DNA of 64,000 bases. Source: a virus. Shown in pieces: positions 1-15,298 of this stretch. Each line of letters begins with the position of its first letter. The stretch's first letter is position 1. The stretch is taken from positions 76,337 through 140,336 of IMG/VR virus record IMGVR_UViG_3300020274_000001, one strand, 5' to 3'. The notes under the pieces were generated by a model. The model was not told the origin of the DNA. It saw only the letters and a program-made list of their open reading frames with translations, and did not search any database. The translations under genes and the position numbers were made by a program.

Positions 1-2
1 AA

Positions 3-159: not shown

Positions 160-163
160 CCAG

Positions 164-658: not shown

Positions 659-667
659 CGGCCATAG

Positions 668-850
668 ATGGACATAATGGGTATCATCATGTTAGTGCTA
701 ACATACACGCTGATAGGCTTCGGCTTTGCGTGTGGTTTCGCACTATTCCGTTGGGTTTCCGCCAAAAGAAAATCCAACAAAAAAAAGAAATCTGGTTCGA
801 CTGCTCCCCAAGAATCACAATGGGAGAGAATAAGAAACCGGATTCCTTAG
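668..850 (+). CDS. Small single-pass membrane protein
   Basis: Hydrophobic N-terminus then a Lys-rich segment; hairpin-ATA-G-ATG start. Confidence 0.75.
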   Translation: MDIMGIIMLVLTYTLIGFGFACGFALFRWVSAKRKSNKKKKSGSTAPQESQWERIRNRIP

Positions 851-864
851 AGCACTTGCTCATA

Positions 865-998
865 GGACGCTGAACCAAGGAAAACGAGGGCGCAAGCCCG
901 ATGACCTTGATTCGCAATCGCACGCTCGCGTCAAGAACGAGCGGCGACATAAAACGCAAAAATACACGCATTCGCGCTCACGTGCGATTGCGAATACA
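865..998 (+). ncRNA. Putative structured RNA with a 15-bp inverted repeat
   Basis: ATTCGCAATCGCACG (910-924) pairs with CGTGCGATTGCGAAT (981-995), followed by ACA-G; the region begins after a hairpin-ATA junction. Confidence 0.45.
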
Positions 999-2084
999 GT
1001 TGCAATGAAAAAAAAAGTGAAAGGAGAATATAGGTGCGGCACTCTGCGTGCTGACCAATTCTGCTTGCTGGGAACTGTTGGACAATGGTCCACACGGTCC
1101 GTGTGAAGCAGCACTGGAGGCGATGTATTATGGCTATCGAGCCATCATCGCTGACAAACATATTCTATCACAGATGGATACTTCCACTGGAAGTTCCGGA
1201 ATCATTGCCCAACCTTGCGTTCACTAATCTGAGGTCTGGGAAATATTTCCCCCGACCGGTCGACCGATGGAATTCTTCTTTACAGGTGTTCCATGGTGGC
1301 TAATTAGTGATGAAACATATTCTAACACGAATGTGCCCTCAGTAAGTAGAGACTACTCAACTTGCGTTGCAAGAAGATGTCAAATTTGACAAAAATCTTG
1401 GGACTGAAAATGAGAGAGCGCATTCAATACCCAATCACACCGCTACTCATTGCAGAGTAGTTCGGAGAAAACCCAGAGCAATCTGGAGTATACTCAGGGG
1501 ATTGGCGATAGAACATAGTCTAAGTCGTAATCCGTGCCTATGAGCACGAGATGCTGAAGAATAACCAGAATATTTTCTGGTCACCGACGAAAATTTTCGG
1601 AATTAACTGTCCGCATATGCGGACTGATTTACGAACGTAATTGGGACCAACATCCGCAATGGACGACGTCAGTCGTCAATATAAGGCTGATTTGGATGAG
1701 AAACATATTCTAAAGCATTTAAGTCTGGGTAAACCAGACCGGATACAGCCGAATAACAGCAGAAAATTCATATGAATTATTTTGCTATTCCAAAATCGAT
1801 ACGATATTTCTTGCTACCCTTATTGGGGATAAAGGAACGAAGGTGAGGACTCACCTCTTTCTCTACGTTAAAGTAGACAGAATATCTGACAAACATGTTC
1901 TAAGACAAATAAGGACTCTATCTGGATGCGGTTACGAAGTAATCGATTACCCGGGTAGAAACTCAGTTCGTGGTGTTGTCCAACTACCATACCAATGACT
2001 AACCACTTTTCCAAGTGGAGTTCCTCGTTGGGTGGTAGATGAGACACCGAATATGACCAAAGCGAATACGATGGAACGGTAGGG

Positions 2085-2906
2085 TTGACCCCCTTTACCG
2101 ATTTCCTCCTTGGGGAAAGGCGTCCCCAGAACCGAACCAATGCAAATGAAATGCATCTTGCCCGTATGGTTCACAGAATGGGATTTGAAATACACCCAGC
2201 AGGGAGACCAGACTACCAAGCCAAACTTACGGTTTGGGAATGGAGCCGGTTTCTCGACTTGCTTCTGCATTCGGCAGGAGCAATAAGCATGGAGCAGATG
2301 TTGAACAATATTGTTCATATCTCCATGATGGAGGCACAAGCACTTAATCACGGTAAGAGCGACGAAGAAATCGCTAACTTTGATGTGACTGAATACAAGA
2401 AAAATGTAGAAGTCGTAAAGAAGGCTGACCGTTCAAAAATGGAACTGATTGACGAAAATATGCCAGACGGCAGTAGAATGTTCATCGGTGCTAAATTGAT
2501 GCTGAAAAAAGGCACTCCAGAAAAAGCAATAGATTCAATGGTCGAAATGGTGGCCGTTTCTGTTGCTTGCTTCCAACATATGGAAGACAAGATGTTTGCG
2601 GCGAGGGAAACAGTCCCTTGCTTTCGAGCGTTTGGACAAAACGGACTGACGGTCAAAGGAGATGACATTTGGGCAATCTATGATTGCATGAATAACTTCT
2701 TTGGTAACGACGTTCCAGACCTATTGAGAATGATGGAATTTCCTAACAAGAAGAGAGTTATTCCTAAATTATCTGATAAAGACAGTAAAGCGTTTGTTGA
2801 ATTTATCAAGGAAAATATCCAACCGCACGACGTAGAAAATTGGCCCCGATTATTCGGAGTCATTTGTCAAGCACTTGGTGATGAGGATGACCTCATCATA
2901 TTGTAG
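2085..2906 (+). CDS. Hypothetical protein, start uncertain
   Basis: 273-aa ORF from TTG; ends at the GGCCAAAGGGCC-ATA junction. Confidence 0.7.
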   Translation: MTPFTDFLLGERRPQNRTNANEMHLARMVHRMGFEIHPAGRPDYQAKLTVWEWSRFLDLLLHSAGAISMEQMLNNIVHISMMEAQALNHGKSDEEIANFDVTEYKKNVEVVKKADRSKMELIDENMPDGSRMFIGAKLMLKKGTPEKAIDSMVEMVAVSVACFQHMEDKMFAARETVPCFRAFGQNGLTVKGDDIWAIYDCMNNFFGNDVPDLLRMMEFPNKKRVIPKLSDKDSKAFVEFIKENIQPHDVENWPRLFGVICQALGDEDDLIIL

Positions 2907-2920
2907 GCCAAAGGGCCATA

Positions 2921-2964
2921 GAACCGAACCATGGACGCTGTATTGTATATCCCCCGTGTGGTTC
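2921..2964 (+). ncRNA. Dual-spacer stem-loop unit (x1)
   Basis: GAACC-GAACCA-[TGGACGCT]-GTATTGTA-[TATCCCCC]-GTGT-GGTTC-ATA. Confidence 0.8.
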
Positions 2965-2968
2965 ATAG

Positions 2969-3292
2969 ATGTGGAATAATACTCCCATGGTAAAGGATGA
3001 TGGTCAACACATTATCCTAATTACCGGTGACGTCGAAGAAGACGAGGCCGGATGGATTGTGGCAGAAATGCCTTATCCAGATGAAGAGACGTTGCGTCTC
3101 GAACAACAGAAGAGAGCCATGATGATTAGTGGCCTACCTCTTGCTTACAAAGTCTTACAAGACATCAGAGAAGATGCACTTAGGATGATGGAAGGTAGTA
3201 GTGGACATTTTGCCCACCTCAATACCTTCGTGCTACAAGCAGAACGAGCCTTGGCATTCATGCCGTGGCTTGACGAGGAAAAGGAGGAATAA
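2969..3292 (+). CDS. Hypothetical protein
   Basis: 107-aa ORF starting at ATA-G-ATG and ending inside hairpin GGAGG/CCTCC. Confidence 0.8.
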   Translation: MWNNTPMVKDDGQHIILITGDVEEDEAGWIVAEMPYPDEETLRLEQQKRAMMISGLPLAYKVLQDIREDALRMMEGSSGHFAHLNTFVLQAERALAFMPWLDEEKEE

Positions 3293-3300
3293 CCTCCATA

Positions 3301-3345
3301 GAACCTAAACACAGACAAGGAAGTGCATTGAAGCATGAAAGGTTC
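3301..3345 (+). ncRNA. Dual-spacer stem-loop unit (x1)
   Basis: GAACC-TAAACA-[CAGACAAG]-GAAGTGCA-[TTGAAGCAT]-GAAA-GGTTC-ACA. Confidence 0.8.
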
Positions 3346-3349
3346 ACAG

Positions 3350-3631
3350 ATGGACGACAGTTTTGACGAACTGTATGATTTTCTTTTTCGAGACGCCGCC
3401 AATACACTTGGTAAACACGGAAGATTTGTTCCAAAGGTGTCTCAAAAAATGCAATCACTAAGCCCCATGTTAGGGGTTATAGCAATGTCAATGGCTCTTA
3501 TTGAAGAAGAAGACCAATACCGTGTTGGCTTCGGCAGAATGTTTGTCGTAGCCCACGCAACAGCATTGCAATTATCGACATTAATTACTATTGACTCAAT
3601 GGAATTATTGCTCGATGAAGCGGACAGATAG
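3350..3631 (+). CDS. Hypothetical protein
   Basis: Start moved to the ATG after ACA-G; the ORF-track start at 3335 lies inside the RNA unit. Confidence 0.7.
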   Translation: MDDSFDELYDFLFRDAANTLGKHGRFVPKVSQKMQSLSPMLGVIAMSMALIEEEDQYRVGFGRMFVVAHATALQLSTLITIDSMELLLDEADR

Positions 3632-3638
3632 TCCATAG

Positions 3639-4001
3639 ATGCAACCTACAATTGCAGAATACCTCACTATTAGGAGGTCAAGAGACAGGGAAATTAGTAG
3701 TCCCTATCTCTCAATGAACAACGACGGCGAAGTGCTATACAAGTATGCCATTAATGGCGACTTTTCTATCATTGAGCAAATGTGCCGCGATTTTGTAAAA
3801 GAATTATATGAAGATGATAATGGACCCGAATTGCTCCGTCTTTACGACACAGGAGTTAACTTCGTAGTGTATCATTTGATTCGAGCGTGGAACATATGGC
3901 ATGAGCGAACAGGCAACGTTAATCATAGCCTATCGGTCATGATGTTCGACAAAAAGAATGGCAAATGGATTGAAAACATTTGGTATACAAACCGGCTGTG
4001 A
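3639..4001 (+). CDS. Hypothetical protein
   Basis: 120-aa ORF; hairpin-ATA-G-ATG start. Confidence 0.75.
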   Translation: MQPTIAEYLTIRRSRDREISSPYLSMNNDGEVLYKYAINGDFSIIEQMCRDFVKELYEDDNGPELLRLYDTGVNFVVYHLIRAWNIWHERTGNVNHSLSVMMFDKKNGKWIENIWYTNRL

Positions 4002-4010
4002 TGGCCATAG

Positions 4011-4253
4011 ATGGGGACTGAAAGGTTCACACTACACCGACCCGGTGGACACCAAGAACAACATAACGTAAACTACGTTTCTGGTGAACTCTCACACGAC
4101 AACGGTGTTGCTTGCATCAATCTTTCAATGATTGGGCGAGGCTTTGAGGGGACTCTGAGAATAGGGTATGATGGCAATAAAATCATTATATTCCTAAAAG
4201 ATTCAGAGAAAGAATCTCACGTGATACACATGTATCCTAAAACCGAGGAATAA
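4011..4253 (+). CDS. Hypothetical protein
   Basis: 80-aa ORF; hairpin-ATA-G-ATG start. Confidence 0.7.
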   Translation: MGTERFTLHRPGGHQEQHNVNYVSGELSHDNGVACINLSMIGRGFEGTLRIGYDGNKIIIFLKDSEKESHVIHMYPKTEE

Positions 4254-4262
4254 TTCCTCATA

Positions 4263-4351
4263 GAGCAAAACATGGTGACTGAATTGCAGTTTAAAAGAAC
4301 GCTCATAGAACCGAACCAAGTCAGATGAATTGTAAAAACGTTGATTGGTTC
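4263..4351 (+). ncRNA. Dual-spacer stem-loop units (x2)
   Basis: GAGC unit [TGGTGACT]/[GTTTAAAA], ATA, GAACC unit [AGTCAGAT]/[AAAACGTT], ACA. Confidence 0.8.
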
Positions 4352-4355
4352 ACAG

Positions 4356-5567
4356 ATGAATTGGCGTGAAGAACACACGCAATGTCTACACCGTAAGAAA
4401 GACGGAACCCGTTGTCAACTTGACACGGCTCCCGGAGATTACGTGTGTGGACATCACACCATCGGTCTCGAAGACATCTTTGAGGACCCGATGGCAGTAG
4501 TCGCTAAATTCCGACTATACTTCCCGAAGAATCACCACCCAGCATGTGACAGGAAAGGACAGAACGATTGTGATTGTCCAGACCGCACATTTGGGGAACT
4601 TCTCGGGCTTGCCTACAAGCGAGCCGCAATCACCAGCCTGCAAAGGACAAGGTTGCACCGAGCAATGGTTCGAGCGGAAATGCGAGACAGGACTCGATTG
4701 ATTCGAGCCTATTACAACTCGATAACGGAAGACGACTTGTGGTTAGGAATGCCTAACCCCAAGTGGCGACAAATTCGATACTTCGTATGGAACGATAATG
4801 AGGAGCGAATGATAGTGAAGAAGCACGATAGAAGCATAAGAACAAAGAAACAATTGCTTGACCTGCTACGACGCGAAGCACCTCATCACGTTTACTACAC
4901 CACCTCACAATGGAGAAATCCAGCAGAGGTTGGTCCCGACCCGTTCTCTAAATCGGGTCGAGACAAATACATCAAGAAGAATGCAAAGAGACTTGCTAAG
5001 AAGGAAGGCTCGAAAGACAAAGGTCGTATCAAAGCATTGATGCATCCTGTGTCGAAGTGGTCAGATTATGGCAACGCATTCATTGAACAGGAACTCTATT
5101 TCGACGTTGATTACGAAATGGAAACTTTCCAAGAGTCAGCCGAAGAAACATTGAGGTTGGCTGAATTCTATGAGACCGTAGAATTTGCAGACTGTGAGAA
5201 AGACATACGATTTGTCTTCTCTGGTGGCAAAGGGTTTCACATGATTGATTACGGATTCAGTATCCGAAGAGCCGTTGGTGAGAAAAACTACGGCACGAGA
5301 ATCAAGAACATATTGGAAGGTGAAAAGGCAAGGAGTGGACTGATGAAAGGTCACGCCTTCGCCGCCATGAAGATAAGTCGTAACGTTAAGAAGCGACTCA
5401 TCAAGAAAATCAGAAAGAAAGGAATCCTACTTGATTACGAAGTGACCGTCGACCCTCGACGAATCATTCGACTACCCGGTTCAATACACGGAAAACGTGG
5501 ACGGGTTTGTAGATTGATAACCAAAGAGGACTTGACGGATTTCGACCCCGGACCTACCTTATGGTAA
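4356..5567 (+). CDS. Archaeo-eukaryotic primase (PriS-like) with Cys/His-rich N-terminal extension
   Basis: AEP motifs APHHVYYT, ELYFDVD, FSGGKGFH and DPRRIIRLPGSIHG; start after ACA-G. Confidence 0.85.
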   Translation: MNWREEHTQCLHRKKDGTRCQLDTAPGDYVCGHHTIGLEDIFEDPMAVVAKFRLYFPKNHHPACDRKGQNDCDCPDRTFGELLGLAYKRAAITSLQRTRLHRAMVRAEMRDRTRLIRAYYNSITEDDLWLGMPNPKWRQIRYFVWNDNEERMIVKKHDRSIRTKKQLLDLLRREAPHHVYYTTSQWRNPAEVGPDPFSKSGRDKYIKKNAKRLAKKEGSKDKGRIKALMHPVSKWSDYGNAFIEQELYFDVDYEMETFQESAEETLRLAEFYETVEFADCEKDIRFVFSGGKGFHMIDYGFSIRRAVGEKNYGTRIKNILEGEKARSGLMKGHAFAAMKISRNVKKRLIKKIRKKGILLDYEVTVDPRRIIRLPGSIHGKRGRVCRLITKEDLTDFDPGPTLW

Positions 5568-5579
5568 ATAGGTCATAGA

Positions 5580-6038
5580 ATGGTAAACATCTACACAGAT
5601 GGTGCCTGTATCAACAATGGACTACCAGATGCCAAAGGAGGCATGGGTGTGTTCAGTCAAGAAATGGACCTTGAGTTGTCCATACCGTGGGAGATGGAAG
5701 TCGAACCTACGAATCAAAGATGCGAAATGGGAGCAGTAGTATACGCTCTTATCGCAATCAAGAAGACTGAACCAAGTCAAGATACGGTTTTTCAGATTCT
5801 AAGTGATTCTGAATACGTTGTTAAAGGAATGAATGAATGGATGAAACAGTGGAAGAACCGTGGCTGGAAGACAGCCAAGGGAAAGGAAGTAAAAAACCGC
5901 TGGCTTTGGGAATTGCTTGATTCGCAATCCAAAGGACTCAACGTCATTTACAAACATGTTCGAGGACACTCTGGTGTTCTCGGCAACGAAAAAGCAGACT
6001 CGCTTGCGCTGTCTGCTGCTGAATCGTTAAAGTTGTGA
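5580..6038 (+). CDS. rnhA: Ribonuclease HI
   Basis: YTDGAC, TNQRCE, SDSEY, WKNRGWKT and HVRGHSG..GNEKAD motifs. Confidence 0.95.
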   Translation: MVNIYTDGACINNGLPDAKGGMGVFSQEMDLELSIPWEMEVEPTNQRCEMGAVVYALIAIKKTEPSQDTVFQILSDSEYVVKGMNEWMKQWKNRGWKTAKGKEVKNRWLWELLDSQSKGLNVIYKHVRGHSGVLGNEKADSLALSAAESLKL

Positions 6039-6077
6039 AACTTTGTTTAACAATGATTAAGGGCTTAATGTCCATAG

Positions 6078-6416
6078 ATGGCTACAATGTCAGAAGATGT
6101 AGATGACAGTCTCGAGATGTATCGAGAGTTGGCACTACTCGCATCGCATGGTGTTGAAGAATACCTTGCGGTGGTAGCAGAATTGCTTGATGCAAGCATA
6201 CTGCTAAATGGATTGCCCTGCGAAATTTCGCAGAAGGCAGAGGCATGGGCTGAAGAAATATCAGTCGAAGTGTCTCAAAAAATGGAAGAACAAAATATCA
6301 TCCCGCACTACTATATAGCGGCGTTGATAGAACAATTGCACAAAGTTGGAGTTATGTCTTTCACGACAGGTTTCAATCAAATGGCTTGTCGTAAATTTCA
6401 GGAGGCTTACTCTTGA
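6078..6416 (+). CDS. Hypothetical protein
   Basis: 112-aa acidic helical ORF; hairpin-ATA-G-ATG start. Confidence 0.75.
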   Translation: MATMSEDVDDSLEMYRELALLASHGVEEYLAVVAELLDASILLNGLPCEISQKAEAWAEEISVEVSQKMEEQNIIPHYYIAALIEQLHKVGVMSFTTGFNQMACRKFQEAYS

Positions 6417-6754
6417 TTGAAGACTATGAAAATGTAACAGATGAAGAGTTGAAACTTCTTCTCGATAGAATTTCCGAATTCGCATTTGACTTTATGTCTA
6501 ACAAAATAGAGCAATTTGGTGGTCTTACACAGGAGTATTCTCATGAGGATGGCTCTAAGACCGTTGTTGTTGTTCCAAAAGGGAATGAGGATGTATGCGT
6601 AGAGTGGACGGAATGTCCACATGGCAGGGTTGAAGTATTTCACATAACCCCTGTCGGTCTCGAAATACCAAGACTCATAATCCCCGCTCCGACAATGATA
6701 CAGGAACACATCAGTATACCTATTGATGCGTTCACTATGAAATTGGAAGAGTAG
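6413..6754 (+). CDS. Hypothetical protein
   Basis: TTG start overlapping the upstream stop (TTGA) with GGAGG upstream. Confidence 0.7.
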   Translation: MIEDYENVTDEELKLLLDRISEFAFDFMSNKIEQFGGLTQEYSHEDGSKTVVVVPKGNEDVCVEWTECPHGRVEVFHITPVGLEIPRLIIPAPTMIQEHISIPIDAFTMKLEE

Positions 6755-6772
6755 CGGCCCTGTGGGCCATAG

Positions 6773-7234
6773 ATGGCAGACGACATCAAAAGCACCGACA
6801 GCGACTTGTCCGGCATTAAGTTCGGACTTGACACATCGGGAAACACTCCTACGATTGTGGTAGAGGGTGTTCGAAATATCGGTTTGAAACAACCGGTGAC
6901 CCAAGAAAGGTTCAATGAACTCATCGAAACAATGGGAGACAAAATGACAAGCATACTATCTATTGTTGAAGATGCTTGTAGAAGTCTACGTGACTTAATG
7001 AATGAAATGTCTGATGATGAGAAACTCATTGCAACTTACTTGATTGAACATACTACGTGGCAATATGCTGTCGCTTCAGACACGCCACTGTTTATGTTTA
7101 ATCCTCGACATCTACCAGATGAAGTAGTAGTTGATAACAAATCAAATACAGTAGAAGGGGCCTTTACTAAGAAAAAAGGCGGCTTCGTTTCTGTCCGAAA
7201 GGGCGGAAAGAAATATTGGGAAAAGAAAAAATGA
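6773..7234 (+). CDS. Hypothetical protein
   Basis: 153-aa ORF; hairpin-ATA-G-ATG start. Confidence 0.75.
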   Translation: MADDIKSTDSDLSGIKFGLDTSGNTPTIVVEGVRNIGLKQPVTQERFNELIETMGDKMTSILSIVEDACRSLRDLMNEMSDDEKLIATYLIEHTTWQYAVASDTPLFMFNPRHLPDEVVVDNKSNTVEGAFTKKKGGFVSVRKGGKKYWEKKK

Positions 7235-7252
7235 AACGGCCTTATGGCCATA

Positions 7253-7296
7253 GAACCGAACCAGAGAAAATGAATCACAATCAAAGTGAACGGTTC
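7253..7296 (+). ncRNA. Dual-spacer stem-loop unit (x1)
   Basis: GAACC-GAACCA-[GAGAAAAT]-GAATCACA-[ATCAAAGT]-GAAC-GGTTC-ACA. Confidence 0.8.
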
Positions 7297-7300
7297 ACAG

Positions 7301-7477
7301 ATGGTCACAGACCCCAAAAAAGGACAATGCCCGACATGCGGGCGTTTAACGCTGATATATATTGACAGCGAAGTGCACACAGAATGGTGCGAAAAATGCG
7401 GGTGGGAACACACCGTCAGTTGGAATGAATTAAGCCCCGACTGGTGGCACAAACAATCAAACAAACCGAGCGAGTAA
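7301..7477 (+). CDS. Small zinc-ribbon protein
   Basis: CPTCG...CEKCG; start after ACA-G. Confidence 0.75.
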   Translation: MVTDPKKGQCPTCGRLTLIYIDSEVHTEWCEKCGWEHTVSWNELSPDWWHKQSNKPSE

Positions 7478-7485
7478 GGCTCATA

Positions 7486-7529
7486 GAACCGAATCATAAC
7501 TCGGGAATTACAAATCACCTGTATGGTTC
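7486..7529 (+). ncRNA. Dual-spacer stem-loop unit (x1)
   Basis: GAACC-GAATCA-[TAACTCGG]-GAATTACA-[AATCACCT]-GTAT-GGTTC-ACA. Confidence 0.8.
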
Positions 7530-7533
7530 ACAG

Positions 7534-7860
7534 ATGGATGACAATGAAGACATCATCAGAATTGCCTCAATGTGGTATCCCTTTGTGGGGGACATAAAGG
7601 CAAGACTCGCTATTGGCTTGGAAACATACGGCCATGGCGTGCGTGTCGAAGATGACACAACTCAATGGGGCACAGAGGTAAACTCTTGGCTCGAAATGGG
7701 ATTAGAGGAAATCGATGACTTGGCAATCTATGTCATGGCACAACTCCTCCGAGAAAAAAAGAAAAACTACGACAACTTGAATGAATTCGCTGGTATACTC
7801 AAAGAATTGAGAGACACCAGAAGAAGAATCATGGAAGTCATGTTAAGAGAAGACGCTTGA
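7534..7860 (+). CDS. Possible all-alpha (MazG-like) nucleotide pyrophosphohydrolase
   Basis: R..IG.ETYG...WLEMGLEEIDDLAIY with an acidic EExxD pattern; start after ACA-G. Confidence 0.5.
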   Translation: MDDNEDIIRIASMWYPFVGDIKARLAIGLETYGHGVRVEDDTTQWGTEVNSWLEMGLEEIDDLAIYVMAQLLREKKKNYDNLNEFAGILKELRDTRRRIMEVMLREDA

Positions 7861-7868
7861 GCGTCATA

Positions 7869-7914
7869 GAATCAAATCAAAAAGTCGGTATTTTAGACAC
7901 CACGAGTATGATTC
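7869..7914 (+). ncRNA. Dual-spacer stem-loop unit (x1) with compensatory stem
   Basis: GAATC-AAATCA-[AAAAGTCG]-GTATTTTA-[GACACCACGA]-GTAT-GATTC-ACA. Confidence 0.75.
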
Positions 7915-7920
7915 ACAGTA

Positions 7921-7952
7921 ATCTATAAATTATACATAGTATACGCTATACT
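7921..7952 (+). promoter_or_regulatory. Candidate archaeal TATA promoter for a leaderless gene
   Basis: TATAAAT about 25-29 nt upstream of ATG 7953; this gene lacks the hairpin-ATAG start. Confidence 0.45.
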
Positions 7953-8162
7953 ATGTCGAGGGTCGCTAATTGTGCCGTGAGAATCATGGAGCAACACAGT
8001 GGCCCGCTTTCTATTTACGAAATACACGCAAGAATGAAAGAGCAAATGAGGAATGTCCCAAAAGTAGGAGTCCTTGCTCGCAAACTTGGCGGTTGTGACG
8101 ATATCAGAAGAGTAGGTTACGGTCAGCCATCTATGTGGGTATTGAAGCCGTCACGCTCATAA
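7953..8162 (+). CDS. Small winged-helix-like DNA-binding protein
   Basis: GPLSIYEIHARM...VLARKL pattern; paralogous to 14819-15091. Confidence 0.6.
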   Translation: MSRVANCAVRIMEQHSGPLSIYEIHARMKEQMRNVPKVGVLARKLGGCDDIRRVGYGQPSMWVLKPSRS

Positions 8163-8197
8163 AGCAGTGACCTTCGGATGCCAATTAGATGGCCCAG

Positions 8198-8440
8198 ATG
8201 AATGCCAAGATTAAGGCAATTCCAGAAAGTTCTACGAGAACAGAAAAGGAAATTAAGGACATGCTTAGACAGGCTGTTCTCACTCGTAACAATTGGCTTG
8301 AAGCGTTTGAAAGTTGCAAACAGTTTCAAGACCGACACGGCATGATGGATGCCGCGAGGAACGCTAAAGCACTTGAAGGCGTTATCAAAACTTTACGTTG
8401 GACCCTTGGAGAAAGGGGTATCAACAATCCGCTCTCATGA
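8198..8440 (+). CDS. Hypothetical protein
   Basis: Start follows hairpin GCCA/TGGC plus CCA-G-ATG. Confidence 0.7.
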   Translation: MNAKIKAIPESSTRTEKEIKDMLRQAVLTRNNWLEAFESCKQFQDRHGMMDAARNAKALEGVIKTLRWTLGERGINNPLS

Positions 8441-8449
8441 AAGAGCATA

Positions 8450-8493
8450 GAACCAAACTAATTCACTCGTATTACAAAAGATGCGAATGGTTC
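8450..8493 (+). ncRNA. Dual-spacer stem-loop unit (x1)
   Basis: GAACC-AAACTA-[ATTCACTC]-GTATTACA-[AAAGATGC]-GAAT-GGTTC-ACA. Confidence 0.8.
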
Positions 8494-8497
8494 ACAG

Positions 8498-8785
8498 ATG
8501 AACATTGAGAACATCAATGAACTGCAAGAGCAATACGGCCTTGCAGAATGGCAACGGATGATTAATGACGGAAGTTGCTGGACCCTTGAGGGTTGGTATG
8601 GTAGAAGAGCAGTGGCATTACTCGAGATGGGTGCCTGCTATTTGCCAGAAGAACCACATCACGATTACTACGGTAACCAAGTGCCAGCGAGGCACATGCT
8701 ACAAGCGGGAACAAAAGGAACGCTTGAATTGAGTCAGACCTTCTGGTCTGACGAAAGCAATTACGGATTGTTTGAGGAAGAATAA
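8498..8785 (+). CDS. Hypothetical viral protein
   Basis: 95-aa ORF with WTLEGWYGR.A..LLE.G motif. Confidence 0.75.
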   Translation: MNIENINELQEQYGLAEWQRMINDGSCWTLEGWYGRRAVALLEMGACYLPEEPHHDYYGNQVPARHMLQAGTKGTLELSQTFWSDESNYGLFEEE

Positions 8786-8802
8786 GGTCATATTGACCAT
8801 AG

Positions 8803-8943
8803 ATGCCTAATTCACAAAAAGGTAGAGAGGCCATACTGGGCCTTAATAATTTGAGAGAGAACAATAGACTACTCCGAATTCAAAATAGAATGATACAGAC
8901 TCTTATTGACGAGATTAGAGATATCAGAAGAAGAGGCTTGTGA
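8803..8943 (+). CDS. 46-aa protein missing from the ORF track
   Basis: MPNSQKGREAILGLNNLREN...RRRGL*, bounded by hairpin-ATA-G-ATG and a gene-end hairpin. Confidence 0.7.
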   Translation: MPNSQKGREAILGLNNLRENNRLLRIQNRMIQTLIDEIRDIRRRGL

Positions 8944-8952
8944 TGCCTCATA

Positions 8953-8994
8953 GAGCAAAACACAGGGCATGAATTGCAGGGGAACGGTATGCTC
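8953..8994 (+). ncRNA. Dual-spacer stem-loop unit (x1)
   Basis: GAGC-AAAACA-[CAGGGCAT]-GAATTGCA-[GGGGAACG]-GTAT-GCTC-ACA. Confidence 0.8.
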
Positions 8995-8998
8995 ACAG

Positions 8999-9367
8999 AT
9001 GGAAGTATCATTTGATACAGATTACGGCCTACAATGGTTTAGAGCCGAAGCGTCTGCTCTCTCTTACGAGAAGCGACGACATCTATACGACAAAATCTCT
9101 CGATGGGAGTATATGGCCAAGAACGGTCCTCAAGGTTGGGCTCACGCCCAAGGCGAGGCCGCAAGAGAGTTGAGCCGTCGTCCTTTAACGGGACACATGA
9201 GAGAATTGTTAATTGAAATCAAAGGAATAGCATGGGTCGAAGAAACCGACTATGCGCACCTAAGAAAAAAACAAAAGGAAGAAAGAGAAAGGTTAGAACG
9301 CAAACAGAAACAGGAAGCCTACTTCGCTAAACTTGATTCTGCGCTTGACGACCTTTTGAAAGAGTAA
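8999..9367 (+). CDS. Hypothetical protein with C-terminal coiled coil
   Basis: Start after ACA-G. Confidence 0.75.
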   Translation: MEVSFDTDYGLQWFRAEASALSYEKRRHLYDKISRWEYMAKNGPQGWAHAQGEAARELSRRPLTGHMRELLIEIKGIAWVEETDYAHLRKKQKEERERLERKQKQEAYFAKLDSALDDLLKE

Positions 9368-9385
9368 GGAGGAATACCTCCATAG

Positions 9386-9967
9386 ATGGTGAAAAACACC
9401 TTCAAAATTGTGGCTGTCGTCAAAGAGGAAAACAAGCAATTGATTTGGGACCTCTTACAAATTGCACTAAAGCATGACGACATCTATTTTGCATTTGAGG
9501 AAGGCAAGCCCTCCGAAATAATGCATAAACCAGCCGACATCAAAAAACTGTCGAAAAAGAAGAAGAAACCGGAGAAACCTACTCTATCAAGAAAGGAAGT
9601 ATCCAAGTTGACCAAAGAAAGCATGAAGAAACTCAAAGCAGAGAAACGTGTTTTCACTGGAGCAGTATTCGGTTGGGATAATCAAAAAGATGGCACAATG
9701 AAGCCAAACTGGAAAGAACAAGAAACCATAGACATGATGCGATACTTTTACTACGAAAAGAAGCAATCATTCTCTTTTATTGCGAAGTGGCTCAATGCCA
9801 ACGACGTAAAGGGAAAGCGTGGTGGAAAGTGGCAAAGTTCGGGAGTATCAAGAGTCGTTCACAACGACTTCCATGCTTCTCGAAATGACTTCAAGAAACC
9901 TAAGTGGTTTTTGAAGAAGACCTATCCAGAAATGACATGGGGTAAGAACCCAAAAATCGTCTCGTAA
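9386..9967 (+). CDS. Protein with a serine-recombinase-type DNA-binding (Recombinase) domain and no catalytic domain
   Basis: GAVFGW...MKPNWKEQE...SFSFIAKWLN...GGKWQSSGVSRVVHN. Confidence 0.7.
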   Translation: MVKNTFKIVAVVKEENKQLIWDLLQIALKHDDIYFAFEEGKPSEIMHKPADIKKLSKKKKKPEKPTLSRKEVSKLTKESMKKLKAEKRVFTGAVFGWDNQKDGTMKPNWKEQETIDMMRYFYYEKKQSFSFIAKWLNANDVKGKRGGKWQSSGVSRVVHNDFHASRNDFKKPKWFLKKTYPEMTWGKNPKIVS

Positions 9968-9975
9968 GGGACATA

Positions 9976-10066
9976 GAGCAAAACAAGTCGTGGGTATTGC
10001 ACATATTCCATGTATGCTCATAGAACTGAATCAATAAGGTTGTATTGCAATTGGCCAAAAAGGTTC
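9976..10066 (+). ncRNA. Dual-spacer stem-loop units (x2)
   Basis: GAGC unit [AGTCGTGG]/[CATATTCCAT]; GAACT/GGTTC unit [ATAAGGTT]/[ATTGGCCA]. Confidence 0.8.
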
Positions 10067-10070
10067 ACAG

Positions 10071-10298
10071 ATGGATGTTAAAGAACTACATCAATATGTC
10101 TCGCAACTGCGAGAATACATTGTGACGCTTGAGCGTCGCATTGCTACACTTGAAAAACAAGTGAATCCGCCACAGACCAAGGACCTTGGTAACGGGCGGA
10201 GAACGTTCACACGTTCAGGTATCAACAACCTGCTCGACGGAATGATTGGGAGGCACCGAAAGGACCCCGTCACCGGAGAGTGGCACAAAGTGAATTAG
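10071..10298 (+). CDS. Small coiled-coil protein
   Basis: 75-aa ORF after ACA-G. Confidence 0.75.
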   Translation: MDVKELHQYVSQLREYIVTLERRIATLEKQVNPPQTKDLGNGRRTFTRSGINNLLDGMIGRHRKDPVTGEWHKVN

Positions 10299-10312
10299 GC
10301 CAATAGGCCATA

Positions 10313-10356
10313 GAACCTAAACACAAGAAGGGAATTACATGAGCCCCGAATGGTTC
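10313..10356 (+). ncRNA. Dual-spacer stem-loop unit (x1)
   Basis: GAACC-TAAACA-[CAAGAAGG]-GAATTACA-[TGAGCCCC]-GAAT-GGTTC-ACA. Confidence 0.8.
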
Positions 10357-10360
10357 ACAG

Positions 10361-10876
10361 ATGTCTGTAAAAGAATACGTGCAGATACGTGCTGACCAAT
10401 ACAAACAGCATGACAACGTCTGGGGGGATTTACCCCGAGATGCGCCAATTAGATTGGCTGATATCTTTGAATGGATATTACAGAATGGACAAACCTTTAG
10501 CGGGACCAATATGGATGCCGCTGATGAAATTGTCGAGCATTCTTTTCGTGCACCAGAAATAAAGGCGTGCTACCATAATGCGTTTTTAGTCCCCCCAGAA
10601 GTAAGATACTTCGAGGGATGGTGGGCAGGAATTATTCCTGTCGAACATGCGTGGAATGTCGTAGACGACAAAGTCGCTGATGTAACGCTCACTATTGAGC
10701 AACATCGTGAACGAGCGTTGAGAGACAGACAAGAATACTTTGGAATTGAAATTCCAAGGGATTGGATGTGGAAGCAAGTAAGTAAAGGAACACACTTTAG
10801 GCCAGAAGGCTCGAGTGGTCCTTTCATCTACGACTACGTTATGGAGCAAATCGCAAAAGAACGAGAAGAGGAATAA
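10361..10876 (+). CDS. Papain/transglutaminase-like fold protein
   Basis: Cys-His-Asp pattern: KACYHNA...YFEG...EHAWNV...VADVT. Confidence 0.6.
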   Translation: MSVKEYVQIRADQYKQHDNVWGDLPRDAPIRLADIFEWILQNGQTFSGTNMDAADEIVEHSFRAPEIKACYHNAFLVPPEVRYFEGWWAGIIPVEHAWNVVDDKVADVTLTIEQHRERALRDRQEYFGIEIPRDWMWKQVSKGTHFRPEGSSGPFIYDYVMEQIAKEREEE

Positions 10877-10885
10877 TTCCTCATA

Positions 10886-10974
10886 GAGCAAAACATGATA
10901 CCAGCATTACAGCCAATCCGAATGCTCATAGAACCGAATCAAGTTTCACGTATGGCAAGTTCGTCGTATGGTTC
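10886..10974 (+). ncRNA. Dual-spacer stem-loop units (x2)
   Basis: [TGATACCA]/[GCCAATCC] and [AGTTTCAC]/[AGTTCGTC]. Confidence 0.8.
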
Positions 10975-10978
10975 ACAG

Positions 10979-11395
10979 ATGGCATTAACATGTCCAGATT
11001 GCGGTCAAGAGACCGCTTATGTGCGTGTCGGCATTTACGTCGACCCACATGACACAAGTGTCGAGGCCCTGTCTGAACAGGTCAGCGACATCATAGGCAC
11101 AGGACCGGAAGACTTCGACGACGAACTTCCTACGGTCTGTGCAGAGTGCGAATGCCAAGTCCCATACAGACTTGCATTTGCCGCCACTGTAAGAAAGCAG
11201 GCTCACAAGAATGACGAAGAAGCGGCAATGGCTTACCGTCATGCGCTTGCTGGAGTTGTCCATTTCTTTGGACGCCTACCAATCGCCGAAAATGAGGCTT
11301 GGACAGAGGACCAGCATGAAGCCTATGAAGCAACACACCGTTTGTTCGCTGTTCTTGATGAACCCGAACAAGACGAAACCTCGGAAGAGGAATGA
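10979..11395 (+). CDS. Zinc-ribbon-containing protein
   Basis: CPDCG...CAEC; start after ACA-G. Confidence 0.75.
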   Translation: MALTCPDCGQETAYVRVGIYVDPHDTSVEALSEQVSDIIGTGPEDFDDELPTVCAECECQVPYRLAFAATVRKQAHKNDEEAAMAYRHALAGVVHFFGRLPIAENEAWTEDQHEAYEATHRLFAVLDEPEQDETSEEE

Positions 11396-11412
11396 CGGCC
11401 TTACGGCCATAG

Positions 11413-11574
11413 ATGGCATGGAAAGATGACATTTGGAGATTGGCTAATCAGTTAAATCTCGAGTATAAGCGTGATATGTGGTCTCCCGTTCACGCTTTTA
11501 ATGCAATCGTAGCAGAACTTGAACGTCTTCGTGATGAAGACCTTTCAGACTGTTACATTACACCCGATAGTTAA
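11413..11574 (+). CDS. 53-aa protein missing from the ORF track
   Basis: MAWKDDIWRLANQLNLEYKRD...ITPDS*, flanked by hairpin-ATAG junctions. Confidence 0.7.
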   Translation: MAWKDDIWRLANQLNLEYKRDMWSPVHAFNAIVAELERLRDEDLSDCYITPDS

Positions 11575-11596
11575 TCGGTCGGCCCTGCGGCCATAG

Positions 11597-12238
11597 ATGA
11601 AGACAAACATCAACATCCAACTCGAAGGCGAAGAAGCCCTCGAGGTTATACGGGCTTTGCTTGGAAACCCAAGTAAGTCTGTCAAGGTAGAAGTTCTACC
11701 AGACGATACACAAACGACAGAAAGTCGTAAAATGACAGAAGAACCAGACAACACTCGACATTGCACAAGATGTGGAGTGAAATTAGAATCTTCTGTAAAT
11801 ATCAAAACAGGTAGATTTATTCGAAGAGAATTTGTCTGCAATGGTTGTTATTCTGGAAGCAGAAAGGGCAAGAAGGTGAACCGAACAGGTTCCAATCACT
11901 GTCGTAAATGCGGAGTAGAATTGACAACAGATAATTGGCAGAGTAAACGAAGTTATATCTGCACATCTTGTAAAGTCAAAAAATCGGATGACCACGTTAC
12001 TATCACGGCTGAACAGCGAACCCAGTGGGCTCGTGAACGTCGTGAAATCATAGGCGGCAAAATCACACAAGTAGGAACCTTCCAAGGTGCGCTCATCGTA
12101 GAGCATATCCGAGGAACACACTACAAGATACAACTCCCAAGCGGAGCAGTGATTGACGCCAAGCACAAGAAGCAGAAGACCCTTGGTGGGGACGAACTCG
12201 GTGCTGGTTGGAGTAAGTGGGAGAAACGGTCTGGATAG
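11597..12238 (+). CDS. Protein with two C4 zinc fingers
   Basis: HCTRCG..VCNGC and HCRKCG..ICTSC. Confidence 0.75.
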   Translation: MKTNINIQLEGEEALEVIRALLGNPSKSVKVEVLPDDTQTTESRKMTEEPDNTRHCTRCGVKLESSVNIKTGRFIRREFVCNGCYSGSRKGKKVNRTGSNHCRKCGVELTTDNWQSKRSYICTSCKVKKSDDHVTITAEQRTQWARERREIIGGKITQVGTFQGALIVEHIRGTHYKIQLPSGAVIDAKHKKQKTLGGDELGAGWSKWEKRSG

Positions 12239-12244
12239 ACCATA

Positions 12245-12332
12245 GAGCAAACAAGCCATCCGAAATATACAAAATGTGAAGGCTCATAGAACCCAATCAA
12301 GTGATTTGAAATACAGGAAATTTGAATGGTTC
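12245..12332 (+). ncRNA. Dual-spacer stem-loop units (x2)
   Basis: [AGCCATCC]/[CAAAATGT] and [AGTGATTT]/[GGAAATTT]. Confidence 0.8.
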
Positions 12333-12337
12333 ACAGA

Positions 12338-12997
12338 ATGCCTAATTGGGCTTACAACAATATGACCGTTGAGTCAGACGGAAGCGAAACAGGTGATGAA
12401 CAATTGCGCTGTTTCGTTAATGTCGCTATCACTGAAGATAGCGAATTGACTTTTAGCGGTCACTTACCTATGCCGAAAGAACTCGACATAGGCAATGCTC
12501 CCTTTGCTGGAATAAAGGATGATGAATCTCTGCTCGAGGCGTTAGCCAAGATAGAGAATCCAGAAACGCCGGAGTTTACAAAGGGGAACTTACTAAAACA
12601 AATCAAGATGTATCAGAACAAGAAAGAATTCGGATACTCTTCTTGGTATGACTGGAACTGTGCCAAGTGGGGGACAAAGTGGGATGCTTCGCAATCCAAT
12701 GTCTCCTCTTTCGGAAATAGTGTTCAAATCAGTTTCAATACTGCTTGGGACCTACCGAGAGGTTGGCTTTTTCATATAATGAACTTAGCAGAATGCTCAC
12801 ACCTGCGAATACGCCTTGTGTGTGAAGCAGAAGGTGAAGCAGTTATACTGGACTCCAATGGAAAGGAAGTCCCGTATGAAGAAAATGTAGACGGACAATG
12901 GTTTCACCATGCCGAATATGTTGAGAAAGAGCCTAATGGTAAAATCAGTCATTACAATAAAACCGCCGAACAACGGTGGAAAGACGGAGAATTTTAA
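12338..12997 (+). CDS. DUF1281/YubB ferredoxin-like family protein
   Basis: MPNWAYN...WYDWNCAKWGTKWD...FNTAW signature. Confidence 0.75.
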   Translation: MPNWAYNNMTVESDGSETGDEQLRCFVNVAITEDSELTFSGHLPMPKELDIGNAPFAGIKDDESLLEALAKIENPETPEFTKGNLLKQIKMYQNKKEFGYSSWYDWNCAKWGTKWDASQSNVSSFGNSVQISFNTAWDLPRGWLFHIMNLAECSHLRIRLVCEAEGEAVILDSNGKEVPYEENVDGQWFHHAEYVEKEPNGKISHYNKTAEQRWKDGEF

Positions 12998-13005
12998 TCT
13001 CCATA

Positions 13006-13094
13006 GAGCGAATCATTCAGCCTGTATTGCACAGCCTAAGAACGCTCATAGAACCGAACCATCATTGAGGAATTACAAAACACCAGAATGGTTC
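13006..13094 (+). ncRNA. Dual-spacer stem-loop units (x2)
   Basis: [TTCAGCCT]/[CAGCCTAA] and [TCATTGAG]/[AAACACCA]. Confidence 0.8.
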
Positions 13095-13098
13095 ACAG

Positions 13099-13479
13099 AT
13101 GTCAGAAATTATTCATGACAGCCACGTTGAGTTAGAGAGTCTATCTCGACGATACATTGAGGAGCAAAGAGCCCTCAAGCAAGCGAAGGATTCAGTAGAA
13201 TCCATCAAAAAGGATATACAGAAAATCCTTGGGAGTTCACGTTTTGTGGAAACCCAGCACTTCACCGTAGAGGTGAAGGAAGTGGAACAGAAGAGAATGA
13301 TGAGTAAAGACGATTTTATTCGCAAACATTCTCCACCAATGAAGGATTCACAAGGCAACGTCATGCTGAATCCAGACAACGAACCAATCCTTGACACTGC
13401 TGTTGGAGCGAAATTCTACAACGAACATCTTGTAGAGCGTCCTTCCAACAGATTCTATGTGAAGAAAAAACCGGTCTGA
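13099..13479 (+). CDS. Hypothetical protein (coiled coil plus beta hairpin)
   Basis: 126-aa ORF; resembles 14449-14832. Confidence 0.75.
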   Translation: MSEIIHDSHVELESLSRRYIEEQRALKQAKDSVESIKKDIQKILGSSRFVETQHFTVEVKEVEQKRMMSKDDFIRKHSPPMKDSQGNVMLNPDNEPILDTAVGAKFYNEHLVERPSNRFYVKKKPV

Positions 13480-13489
13480 AAGGACCATA

Positions 13490-13579
13490 GAGCAAAAACA
13501 TCGTCTCTGAAATGCACAAGAAAGGAATGCTCATAGAACCAAATCAAGCATGCTGAATTGCAGGTGATTCGTAAGGTTC
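13490..13579 (+). ncRNA. Dual-spacer stem-loop units (x2)
   Basis: [TCGTCTCT]/[CAAGAAAG] and [AGCATGCT]/[GGTGATTC]. Confidence 0.8.
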
Positions 13580-13585
13580 ACAGAA

Positions 13586-14233
13586 ATGCGTTATTTCAAA
13601 AATTATGACGACGCTTGGAGTTATCTCCAAAGAGGTCGAAACATCGAGAAGGGGAGACCTATCGGTGCGCACACCAGAATTTACAAACGTAAAGATGGAA
13701 CAATAGCAATCAGATATCACAGCACTGATATTGTTCGCTATTACAAGCATAAGAACGGAAAGCAATGGATGTCATTTGACAACGAGGGATGGACCTCCAC
13801 GACAACATTGCAAAGACTGCATTACGTCATGCCCAATGGCATAGGCGTCGATACGAGTCTAAACCGATTCATAGGACAGTGGTTTACCAGATGTAACGGT
13901 GAATTATACAACCTAAACCATCACGTAAAATTCGATGAAAATCTTAACGTAAAAAACAAGAAACAGATGTCTCTGAAAACGATGGACAATATCAGTGATG
14001 CTGGGACAAGAATAAGAAAATTGTTAGCATCATCATTGAGTTCAATTGAAAGAGATGTTTCAAAGAAGAGGCAAGAAAATGCCGAACTCTCCTACGAGAG
14101 AATTCAACTTCGTGGCGAAATAATGGCTTTCGAAGAAATGAGAGAAACACTTCGTGGAGAAGTAGGATACTTGTTGAAACTAAAGAAGGGCGACACCGAT
14201 AATGGTGCAAAAGACGTCCTCAACAGGGTGTAA
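13586..14233 (+). CDS. Hypothetical protein with C-terminal coiled coil
   Basis: 215-aa ORF after ACA-GAA. Confidence 0.75.
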   Translation: MRYFKNYDDAWSYLQRGRNIEKGRPIGAHTRIYKRKDGTIAIRYHSTDIVRYYKHKNGKQWMSFDNEGWTSTTTLQRLHYVMPNGIGVDTSLNRFIGQWFTRCNGELYNLNHHVKFDENLNVKNKKQMSLKTMDNISDAGTRIRKLLASSLSSIERDVSKKRQENAELSYERIQLRGEIMAFEEMRETLRGEVGYLLKLKKGDTDNGAKDVLNRV

Positions 14234-14241
14234 TGCCCATA

Positions 14242-14444
14242 GAGCGAAACATCGAACCCGAATTACATTGAACCCGTAATTCGCTCATAGAGCGATAGGT
14301 CATAGGACTAAACCATAACAAAAGAAATACAAGAGGTCTGAAAAGTCCATAGAGCAAACAACAACGAAGAACTGTATACAATTAGAATGCTCATAGAACC
14401 GAACCACACCAAATATGCCGAATTACAGGGTGGCAGAATGGTTC
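14242..14444 (+). ncRNA. Dual-spacer stem-loop units (x4, plus one empty mini-hairpin)
   Basis: [TCGAACCC]/[TTGAACCC]; GGACT/AGTCC unit [TAACAAAA]/[AGAGGTCT]; [ACAACGAA]/[TACAATTA]; [(CACCA)AATATGCC]/[GGGTGGCA]. Confidence 0.8.
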
Positions 14445-14448
14445 ACAG

Positions 14449-14832
14449 ATGTCAGACGACATACAATACGTCATGGCCAGAATTAAGGCCATGGAAGATG
14501 TGAGAAAGAATCTCGCATCTGCGATAAAGAAAGACAAAGAATATGTCAGAGAAACAATGGGTGAAAGGGAAGTCTTGGAGACCCCAGCCTTCACTGCAAA
14601 GATTGTTACTCGGACTTCAACACGATTGTTGGGGATAGAACATATTCGTAACCTATTAGGGTCGACAACCGTGGATAAAATCACGAAGACGTCGGAATCT
14701 AAGTCGCTGTCAATCAAAGAAACGTTGGCTAATTTTGAACCGTTCGAAGTCGAAGACCTCGAATTAGTTCCAGATTGGGCCAAGTCTGCCGCTATTACGC
14801 TACAAGTGAGGGAATTACTTGGCGAGAATTAG
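14449..14832 (+). CDS. Hypothetical protein
   Basis: 127-aa ORF after ACA-G; resembles 13099-13479. Confidence 0.75.
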   Translation: MSDDIQYVMARIKAMEDVRKNLASAIKKDKEYVRETMGEREVLETPAFTAKIVTRTSTRLLGIEHIRNLLGSTTVDKITKTSESKSLSIKETLANFEPFEVEDLELVPDWAKSAAITLQVRELLGEN

Positions 14833-15091
14833 GCGAGCATCGGACAGATATCATACTCAAATCGAAACGATATTGAGAGAAAAAGGTCCGCTTGTTGCTT
14901 ATGACATCCGTCAAGCAATGGTTGGGCGTTGGAAAAACGTCCCTACTCCGAATCAACTCGGAAACCTATTAGCGAAAAACAAGAACATTAAATCATTAGG
15001 ACCGGGACACAAAAAATCGTTCTCGGCTCTACTCGATGGTTCTGGCACAGGAGGTGTAAACCTCTGGGCTTTGGTTGAACAAGGGGATTGA
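14819..15091 (+). CDS. Small winged-helix-like DNA-binding protein
   Basis: GPLVAYDIRQAM...PTPNQLGNLL; TTG start with GTGAGG upstream. Confidence 0.6.
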   Translation: MARIRRASDRYHTQIETILREKGPLVAYDIRQAMVGRWKNVPTPNQLGNLLAKNKNIKSLGPGHKKSFSALLDGSGTGGVNLWALVEQGD

Positions 15092-15098
15092 CCCCATA

Positions 15099-15234
15099 GA
15101 GCAAAACAGGCACGGTGAAATACATAGGACACGTATGCTCATAGAACCAAAACACTTTGTCGGTATTGCATACTTGTAGTGTGGTTCACAGAATCGAATC
15201 AAGTATACAGTATTGTAGAACAAAAGAATGATTT
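15099..15234 (+). ncRNA. Dual-spacer stem-loop units (x3)
   Basis: [GGCACGGT]/[TAGGACAC]; [CTTTGTCG]/[TACTTGTA]; GAATC/GATTT unit [AGTATACA]/[GAACAAAA]. Confidence 0.8.
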
Positions 15235-15237
15235 ATT

Positions 15238-15282
15238 GAGAGAGAAGTAGACAGAAATGTCCACTTCTCTCTCTTTTTTTTT
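15238..15282 (+). terminator. Hairpin plus T-tract terminator closing the early array
   Basis: GAGAGAGAAGT...ACTTCTCTCTC followed by T9, between convergent gene blocks. Confidence 0.75.
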
Positions 15283-15298
15283 GGCTCAAAAAATCACA

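Follow-up and report, generated by a model that had tools for sequence, protein, structure and literature searches.

The last 64 kb of an IMG/VR virus record (IMGVR_UViG_3300020274_000001, positions 76,337 to 140,336) was analysed with regard to a field of short dual-spacer stem-loop units that lie between the viral genes and are compared here with the guide RNAs of TIGR-Tas systems. The record is 140,336 bp long and has direct terminal repeats. The 64-kb stretch is called the window; coordinates marked 'genome' refer to the whole record (W), and all others to the window. The gene set of W includes an MCM helicase, two archaeo-eukaryotic primases, a family B DNA polymerase (PolB), a thermosome-type chaperonin, RNase H and an Rpb5-like protein. 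Compared with a phage collection, the MCM protein matched only distant archaeal-virus MCMs (24–28% identity), the closest being those of archaeal tailed viruses. It had no match in IMG/VR, and the DNA-level comparison with the phage collection gave none. PMC11706807 names chaperonin, primase and PolB as characteristic of the viruses that infect marine group II archaea. Because of this list, the gene set (MCM, primases, PolB and chaperonin) and the archaeal-virus MCM matches, W was judged from its sequence to have probably infected marine archaea.

A strict parser found 43 units in the genome. They occupy 27 loci within genome 53471–91570 and all lie on the + strand, the minus strand having none. 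An earlier note, made from the letters of the window alone, had reported 27 of them, distributed over 16 intergenic loci (2921–15234) and likewise all on the + strand. All 27 were recovered by the parser, which added one missed in the window (2129–2172) and 15 upstream of it (genome 53471–74171). The note was right in describing dispersal instead of a compact array, but the field is larger than the 12 kb and 27 units it gave, with 43 units spread over 38 kb. A covariance model trained on the 28 window units gave 37 genome matches (E≤1), tandem overlapping units being partly masked in its search. All were on the + strand within genome 53467–91574, and a divergent extra unit at genome 64637 was detected by the model alone.

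Each unit is about 44 nt long and reads closing stem, NAAHCA, 8 nt (spacer A), GWAWTRYA, 8 nt (spacer B), GWAW, stem, AUA/ACA. The constant frame described earlier was seen again on direct reading: two 8-nt segments flank an 8-nt loop box (G-N5-Y-A) and are closed by a stem of 4–5 bp. There are two main classes, GAACC...GGTTC units, usually followed by ACA-G-ATG, and GAGC...GCTC units, usually followed by ATA-G and another unit. The rarer stems (GAATC/GATTC, GGACT/AGTCC, GAGTC/GGCTC and others) were still complementary. Within the window, spacer A was 8 nt in 27 of 28 units and spacer B in 24, with the remainder at 9–13 nt, as first described. When 168 units from 12 related sequences were taken together, the figures were 161 and 158. 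The reported bracketing of spacers by YA (mostly CA) and G was found in 154–166 of these 168 units per position, spacer A being preceded by CA in 158 and followed by G in 161, and spacer B preceded by CA or TA in 166 and followed by G in 154. Distinct units numbered 148 of the 168, and their tails were ACAG in 92 and ATAG in 50. The box pair of C/D RNAs (TGATGA then CTGA) was found in order in 0 of 43 units, in agreement with the first description. Rfam and tRNA scans of the window gave no matches, nor did a search of IMG/VR with the exact unit pattern.

The covariation proposed earlier for the stems was examined on the 107 model matches from relatives. All 480 cells of the closing helix were paired, three of the five base pairs changed on both sides, and the observed values were reached by 0 of 500 shuffles; the alignment was fitted to the covariance model, so the result leans towards structure. 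The closing stem was within the minimum-energy fold in 9 of 12 units, and G1 of the loop box could pair with Y7 in 154 of 162. The spacers were near random in composition (≤0.32 bit per position). Within W there were no duplicates, and no pair of units came closer to each other than 6 of 16 spacer positions. Spacers A and B were no more complementary than shuffled partners (p 0.44 in register; 0.09 and 0.05 for the longest run and for runs of 5 or more, respectively). Pairs of units sharing just one spacer were in excess (16 against about 8 expected by chance), which is a weak signal; in one such pair (genome 74128 and 7443 of the relative L025) both adjacent boxes were also common.

The note had suggested a search of the whole contig for a Nop/IS110-like RNA-binding protein, and this search identified a Tas protein outside the window. 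Among 141 genome ORFs (open reading frames) scanned against NCBIfam, a single one, of 345 aa at genome 52046–53083, 24 kb upstream of the window, matched NF052498 (TIGR_Tas_endo, "TIGR-Tas system RNA-guided endonuclease"), an equivalog model with a curated cut-off of 100 bits. The match reached 149.8 bits (E 1e-43) over profile positions 1–214 of 215, and a six-frame search placed it at genome 52142–52978, inside this ORF, referred to as tas. No Pfam domain was found in the protein at E≤0.01. An AlphaFold model using 27 homologues was helical with a small Cys-rich insertion (predicted local distance difference test 82.7, predicted template modelling score 0.82). In a Foldseek search of the PDB, the 10 best among the matches listed were all TasH-tigRNA complexes or TasR (9mty), with E 3e-6 to 1e-5 and probability 1.0; IS110-family recombinases formed the next tier. 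A profile of the Tas family also matched the TasR structure 9mty (E 1.2e-16), query positions 42–340 being aligned to chain positions 123–324. Because the N-terminal part of TasR (about 120 residues) has no counterpart in the Tas of W, the latter appears by sequence to be TasA-like, with no recognisable nuclease domain. Predictions of a Tas homodimer scored 0.00, 0.56 and 0.01 against a mark of 0.42, which speaks neither for nor against binding. The Cys-rich insertion (about 30 residues, Tas about 121–150, genome 52406–52495) is present in some homologues and not in others, and may be a zinc ribbon.

For comparison, 80 of 532 IMG/VR stretches encoding relatives of this Tas were fetched. The C-terminal loop motif P[YF]...G-H-x-H was present in 80 of 80, whereas the Tas proteins of W, L025 and L027 read TFF...(S/A)E and have no C-terminal His. 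Tandem Repeats Finder detected arrays with a period of 34 or 36 (or multiples) adjoining tas in 53 of the 80 loci, and a regular expression found compact arrays in most of the remaining 27. A generic regular expression for stem-loop units gave noise in the other Tas loci, with equal counts on both strands. In the arrays beside homologous tas genes, the spacers are 8 nt long and the repeats around them run from an initial G to a final CA. Those of the closest homologues (L103–L105, 46–47% identity) read GAGCGAGCCA-N8-GAACATCA-N8, that is, a 10-nt repeat, N8, an 8- or 10-nt repeat and N8. To judge by sequence, the loop box GAAWTRCA and the stem plus first box of the units (GAGC-GAAACA, GAACC-GAACCA) look like derivatives of these repeats. 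The 8-nt spacers had been considered unusual; they are normal for this Tas clade because the arrays of the closest homologues carry them. Dispersal and closing stems are not normal for the clade.

In W the first three units begin 388 nt after the tas stop codon, and only these 3 of 43 lie within 0.6 kb of tas. The other 40 are 13–38.5 kb away, singly or in groups of 2–4, between unrelated protein genes, and W has no tandem array adjoining tas as TIGR-Tas systems do. In L025 one unit abuts the start codon of tas and another follows its stop, and in L027 units follow tas; in both the gene is intact and conserved at 68–71% amino-acid identity. The proposed covariance search of relatives showed the units to be restricted to 11 loci with a primase identity of 79% or more, with 107 matches against 0 in 77 other sources (979 kb searched).

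From this analysis, the units are likely to encode the guide RNAs (stem-loop tigRNAs) of a TIGR-Tas system in this 140-kb virus. Support comes from the Tas in the same genome, units adjoining tas, the matching array layout and the co-occurrence of units and tas, and further from the RNA-like closing helix, the guide-like spacers and the clade-specific loss of the C-terminal His. The TIGR-like system that the earlier note had suggested from RNA layout was thereby made likely through a protein lying beyond the DNA then seen.

Gene ends in W carry short hairpins with no fixed sequence; AYA-G comes next, and after it either ATG or a unit. At genome 50–92 kb, the counts of hairpin-AYAG-ATG were 53 on + against 1 on −, and the unit tails are the same AYA-G. 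In unit-less relatives (L001–L005, L029–L097; 791 kb) a hairpin followed by CTAG or TTAG and ATG was common, 576 on + against 270 on −, and the CTAG form had a gene-strand bias (160 on + against 15 on −). Because unit-less relatives have it too, the punctuation is independent of the units; it is inferred to be older, the units conforming to it. Such family-wide sites may mark RNA processing or re-initiation yielding leaderless mRNAs.

These observations would also suit units that are only larger hairpin punctuation, serving RNA processing, stability or translation re-initiation, with the variable stretches as filler. However, plain short hairpins suffice at most junctions and in all unit-less relatives. 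Filler would not hold an exact 8+8 nt (161 and 158 of 168) or CA/G frames identical to those of Tas-associated arrays, and the units are confined to the clade having tas. We consider a mere punctuation role very improbable.

In 22 of the 28 GAACC-like units of W an ATG lies within 2 nt of the tail, and the loop box falls at −29 to −22 from it. In leaderless archaeal mRNA a TATA box would sit at about this position, and T4-type phages carry mobile promoter or stem-loop cassettes. The units could thus be DNA-level promoter or regulatory cassettes for a host or viral RNA polymerase, functionally unrelated to Tas, and the location of every unit on the gene strand and the Rpb5-like gene in the genome would suit such cassettes. 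Against this, 12 of the 15 GAGC-type units in W are followed by another unit instead of a gene, tandem groups reach four units, and the closing helix covaries. Arrays next to homologous tas have an identical twofold CA-N8-G frame, the same junction holds 0, 1, 2 or 3 units among strains with near-identical flanks, and the units co-occur with tas. A promoter function alone was judged improbable. The more specific model of an archaeal TATA or leaderless promoter was first set aside given Tas and the homologous arrays, promoters in general being retained as a rival. T7-like or N4-like hairpin promoters, bulge-helix-bulge or RNase P/Z sites, and H/ACA-like hairpins followed by ACA were dropped once Tas and the homologous arrays had been found.

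Turnover was assessed by comparing W with four collinear strains whose flanks were 85–99% identical, counting junctions with a unit on at least one side. The 24 comparisons gave the same unit in 5, a partly same one in 1, and a different unit or gain/loss in 18. Upstream of the primase gene, five strains had five different unit sets between near-identical flanks, and at the primase-RNase H junction W had no unit and others had two or three. In all, about ten co-circulating strains showed unit-by-unit replacement, and at least 6 units reappeared at different junctions in different strains. This mobility, with CAYAG on both sides of each unit, would be in keeping with selfish miniature mobile elements inserting at CATAG, or with the decaying remnant of a scattered array, unused by Tas. 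Copies of such an element should be alike throughout, whereas here only the frame is kept, strongly constrained in all 168 units, with 148 of them distinct and no duplicates within the genome. The intact tas of L025 and L027 likewise speaks against a remnant. Of the alternatives weighed, this one was given the least credence.

A 193-aa protein inside the unit field (9386–9964) had only the Recombinase domain of serine recombinases (PF07508, E 2.6e-5). A second ORF in the genome also matched the Recombinase domain, and a Resolvase domain was found elsewhere; these could bear on unit exchange. A Pfam scan of ten larger ORFs of the field at E≤1 gave nothing relevant besides the Recombinase domain.

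Several results weigh against the interpretation of the units as TIGR guide RNAs. A guide RNA needs no fixed spacing to a start codon, and the spacing seen here would also suit a promoter or leader element. Fold-energy z-scores (−0.3 to −3.5) were near those of shuffled sequence and are weak alone. None of the 148 distinct units has CUU at the stem base, AYA standing in its place, and the anchors CA and G are shortened versions of the CCA and UG given in the available part of PMC12045711, the layout being otherwise retained. A six-frame search of the genome for Pfam Nop (PF01798) gave 0 matches. In SpTasH, H296 is catalytic for pre-tigRNA processing, as stated in the accessible part of PMC13421893; it lies no more than one or two residues from the family His by spacing from an aligned helix, not by residue-level alignment. 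No tas was found in 4 records of unit-less relatives, each 15–79% complete, and this incompleteness weakens the co-occurrence. Targets were searched with 134 distinct 8+8 units in four arrangements over 1.29 Mb of W and relatives, giving 0 exact 16-nt matches. With at most one mismatch there were 11, 5, 4 and 2 matches against control means of about 6–7, and with at most two mismatches the numbers were at control level. RNA data consisted of short, low-depth assembled contigs of W or related strains from three runs (two oligo-dT, one metatranscriptome). Some contigs span a gene into its upstream unit; they give no ends and no strand, and DNA carry-over may account for them.

Comparison with stem-loop TIGR-Tas systems with TasA was based on the available parts of Faure et al. 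2025 (PMC12045711) and Xu et al. 2026 (bioRxiv 10.64898/2026.09.09.750476). As in those systems, W has a Tas with a Nop/IS110-type RNA-binding fold, a palindromic stem that closes the units, and two short spacers of equal length, both bordered by conserved nucleotides; units can stand upstream and downstream of tas. The published Tas have no C-terminal self-processing residues, and the equivalent in W rests on the His position obtained from spacing. The loop between the spacers is 8 nt in W and mostly 9 nt in the published systems. W differs in that 40 of its 43 units lie far from tas among unrelated protein genes, in the stem base (the AYA-G of the genome's gene punctuation instead of CUU), in the anchors (CA and G instead of CCA and UG), and in its probably archaeal host. 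Its Tas is by sequence closest to proteins that adjoin dual-repeat arrays. The arrays of L103–L105 share with W the 8-nt spacers and repeats starting with G and ending with CA; their loop repeat GAACATCA resembles the loop box, and their edge repeat GAGCGAGCCA the stem plus first box. Unlike the units of W they are compact (period 34–36 nt), lie about 0–150 nt from tas and have no closing stems, and their Tas keep the C-terminal P[YF]...GH motif (80/80).

Archaeal box C/D sRNAs (with Nop5, fibrillarin and L7Ae) resemble the units in having two guides, internal twofold symmetry and a terminal closing stem, and the Tas fold is related to that of Nop5 according to the part of PMC12045711 at hand. 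They differ in the C/D boxes, the Rfam result and the Pfam Nop result given above, and in guides of 10–12 nt against 8 nt; published Tas systems target DNA. IS110-family recombinases and their bridge RNAs (IS621, ISCro4) were second-tier matches of the Tas of W in both fold and sequence, and a bridge RNA, like the units, has paired guide segments. In contrast to them, the Tas of W has no DEDD/RuvC-like N-terminal domain, and there are many short units instead of one bridge RNA per element.

If the units are guide RNAs, they would be transcribed within long + strand transcripts of the gene block at genome 53–91.6 kb, released by cutting at the hairpin-AYA-G junctions, which punctuate the genes as well, and bound by a Tas dimer. 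The RNA would then direct Tas to DNA sites, one guide pairing with each strand. The outcome is proposed to be binding or repression rather than cleavage because the Tas has no nuclease domain. Between strains the repertoire would be diversified by swapping whole units, perhaps half units, at the conserved frames. Processing at AYA-G, Tas binding and repression are modelled on the published systems as far as described in the parts of PMC12045711 and bioRxiv 10.64898/2026.09.09.750476 available.

A more far-reaching possibility, put forward tentatively and as a whole rather doubtful, is that a TIGR guide repertoire was fragmented and fused with the virus's own gene punctuation. The hairpin-AYA-G cutting that separates mRNAs would at the same time mature each guide, leave the downstream mRNA leaderless, and replace the self-processing activity lost by Tas. 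Whole-unit exchange at fixed frames would be the natural way in which TIGR repertoires gain guides, and a nuclease-free Tas would shut down genes of the host or of rival viruses while the virus infects marine archaea. If true, this would also explain the published 'arrayless' Tas genes in dense viral genomes.

TIGR-Tas, stem-loop arrays and nuclease-free TasA repressors have already been published, as covered by the available parts of Faure et al. 2025 and Xu et al. 2026. A literature search, which excluded supplementary array tables and TIGRSafari, found no published description of a dispersed tigRNA layout, and only these two sources, each seen in part, were found for 'TIGR-Tas' together with 'archaeal virus'. 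By protein and unit layout the system of W is a member of TIGR-Tas; it departs in array organisation, the stem-base motif and the link to gene punctuation. The accessible part of the preprint (Xu et al. 2026) lists as open questions spacer acquisition, maturation of stem-loop guides, and Tas with no detectable array in dense viral genomes. The locus in W bears on all three, through unit replacement between strains, AYA-G ends together with the His loss, and hidden guides. Published surveys of TIGR-Tas, a system first described in 2025, search the surroundings of tas for arrays, whereas the putative guides of W sit singly in gene junctions that are very short and up to 38 kb away. Annotation pipelines would badly underestimate the number of guides in such genomes. 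This would be a TIGR system in a virus probably infecting marine archaea.

The loci of the window and the hairpin that follows the last of them are listed in Table 1.

Table 1. Unit loci and terminal hairpin in the window, with the state of the same junctions in related strains (L018–L021).
Feature	Position	Strand	Remarks
One GAACC-type unit	2129–2172	+	Preceded by CCCAG, not CATAG; followed by ACAGA-ATG; 28th unit, not in the first list; single unit kept at same junction in L018, L019 and L020 with 1–2 spacer changes
One GAACC-type unit, then ATAG-ATG	2921–2964	+	Junction empty in L018 and L020; different units in L019 and L021
One GAACC-type unit, 9-nt spacer B	3301–3345	+	Related unit in L020; different ones in L018 and L019
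Tandem pair ahead of primase gene	4263–4351	+	GAGC-type 4263–4304, GAACC-type 4308–4351; wholly different units in L018, L019, L020 and L021 with near-identical flanks; GAGC unit reappears downstream of primase in L020
One GAACC-type unit	7253–7296	+	Same unit in L020
One GAACC-type unit	7486–7529	+	RNA-library contig X19 spans the downstream gene into another strain's unit here
One unit, GAATC/GATTC stem, 10-nt spacer B	7869–7914	+	Parser and covariance model
One GAACC-type unit	8450–8493	+	Missing at this junction in L020
One GAGC-type unit directly ahead of ACAG-ATG	8953–8994	+	L020 has same unit plus one extra
Two units	9976–10066	+	GAGC-type 9976–10019, GAACT/GGTTC-type 10023–10066; GAGC unit reappears upstream of primase in L020
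One GAACC-type unit	10313–10356	+	Parser and covariance model
Two units, GAGC-type then GAACC-type	10886–10974	+	Parser and covariance model
Two units, GAGC-type then GAACC-type	12245–12332	+	Parser and covariance model
Two units, GAGC-type then GAACC-type	13006–13094	+	GAACC unit reappears at different junction in L019
Two units, GAGC-type then GAACC-type	13490–13579	+	Parser and covariance model
Four-unit mini-array	14242–14444	+	GAGCG 14242, GGACT 14305, GAGC 14352, GAACC 14396 (13-nt spacer A)
Three units, last locus of the field	15099–15234	+	GAGC 15099, GAACC 15144, GAATC 15191
Terminator-like strong hairpin, then run of about nine T	15238–15285	+	Direct reading

In the first unit of the mini-array (14242–14286) and in a unit of L021 (4318–4358), both spacers are near-identical direct repeats containing GAACCC and resembling the GAACC stem; these units may be self-directed or degenerate. 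The terminator-like hairpin stands directly after the last unit, where the + strand block meets the convergent replication genes on the − strand. The two archaeo-eukaryotic primase genes (4356–5567 and 15299–16621) lie on opposite strands and adjoin the MCM helicase gene at 17453–19858.

With regard to the host, one DNA run (X2), labelled with a coded single organism, contained 96% of sampled words of window positions 2900–12800 and could point to the host or a co-culture. Two oligo-dT-selected marine RNA-seq libraries (runs X18 and X19) held contigs of W or close strains (window 1–16000). Their presence after oligo-dT selection is odd for a presumed archaeal virus, and could be explained by A-rich priming, DNA carry-over or polyadenylation.

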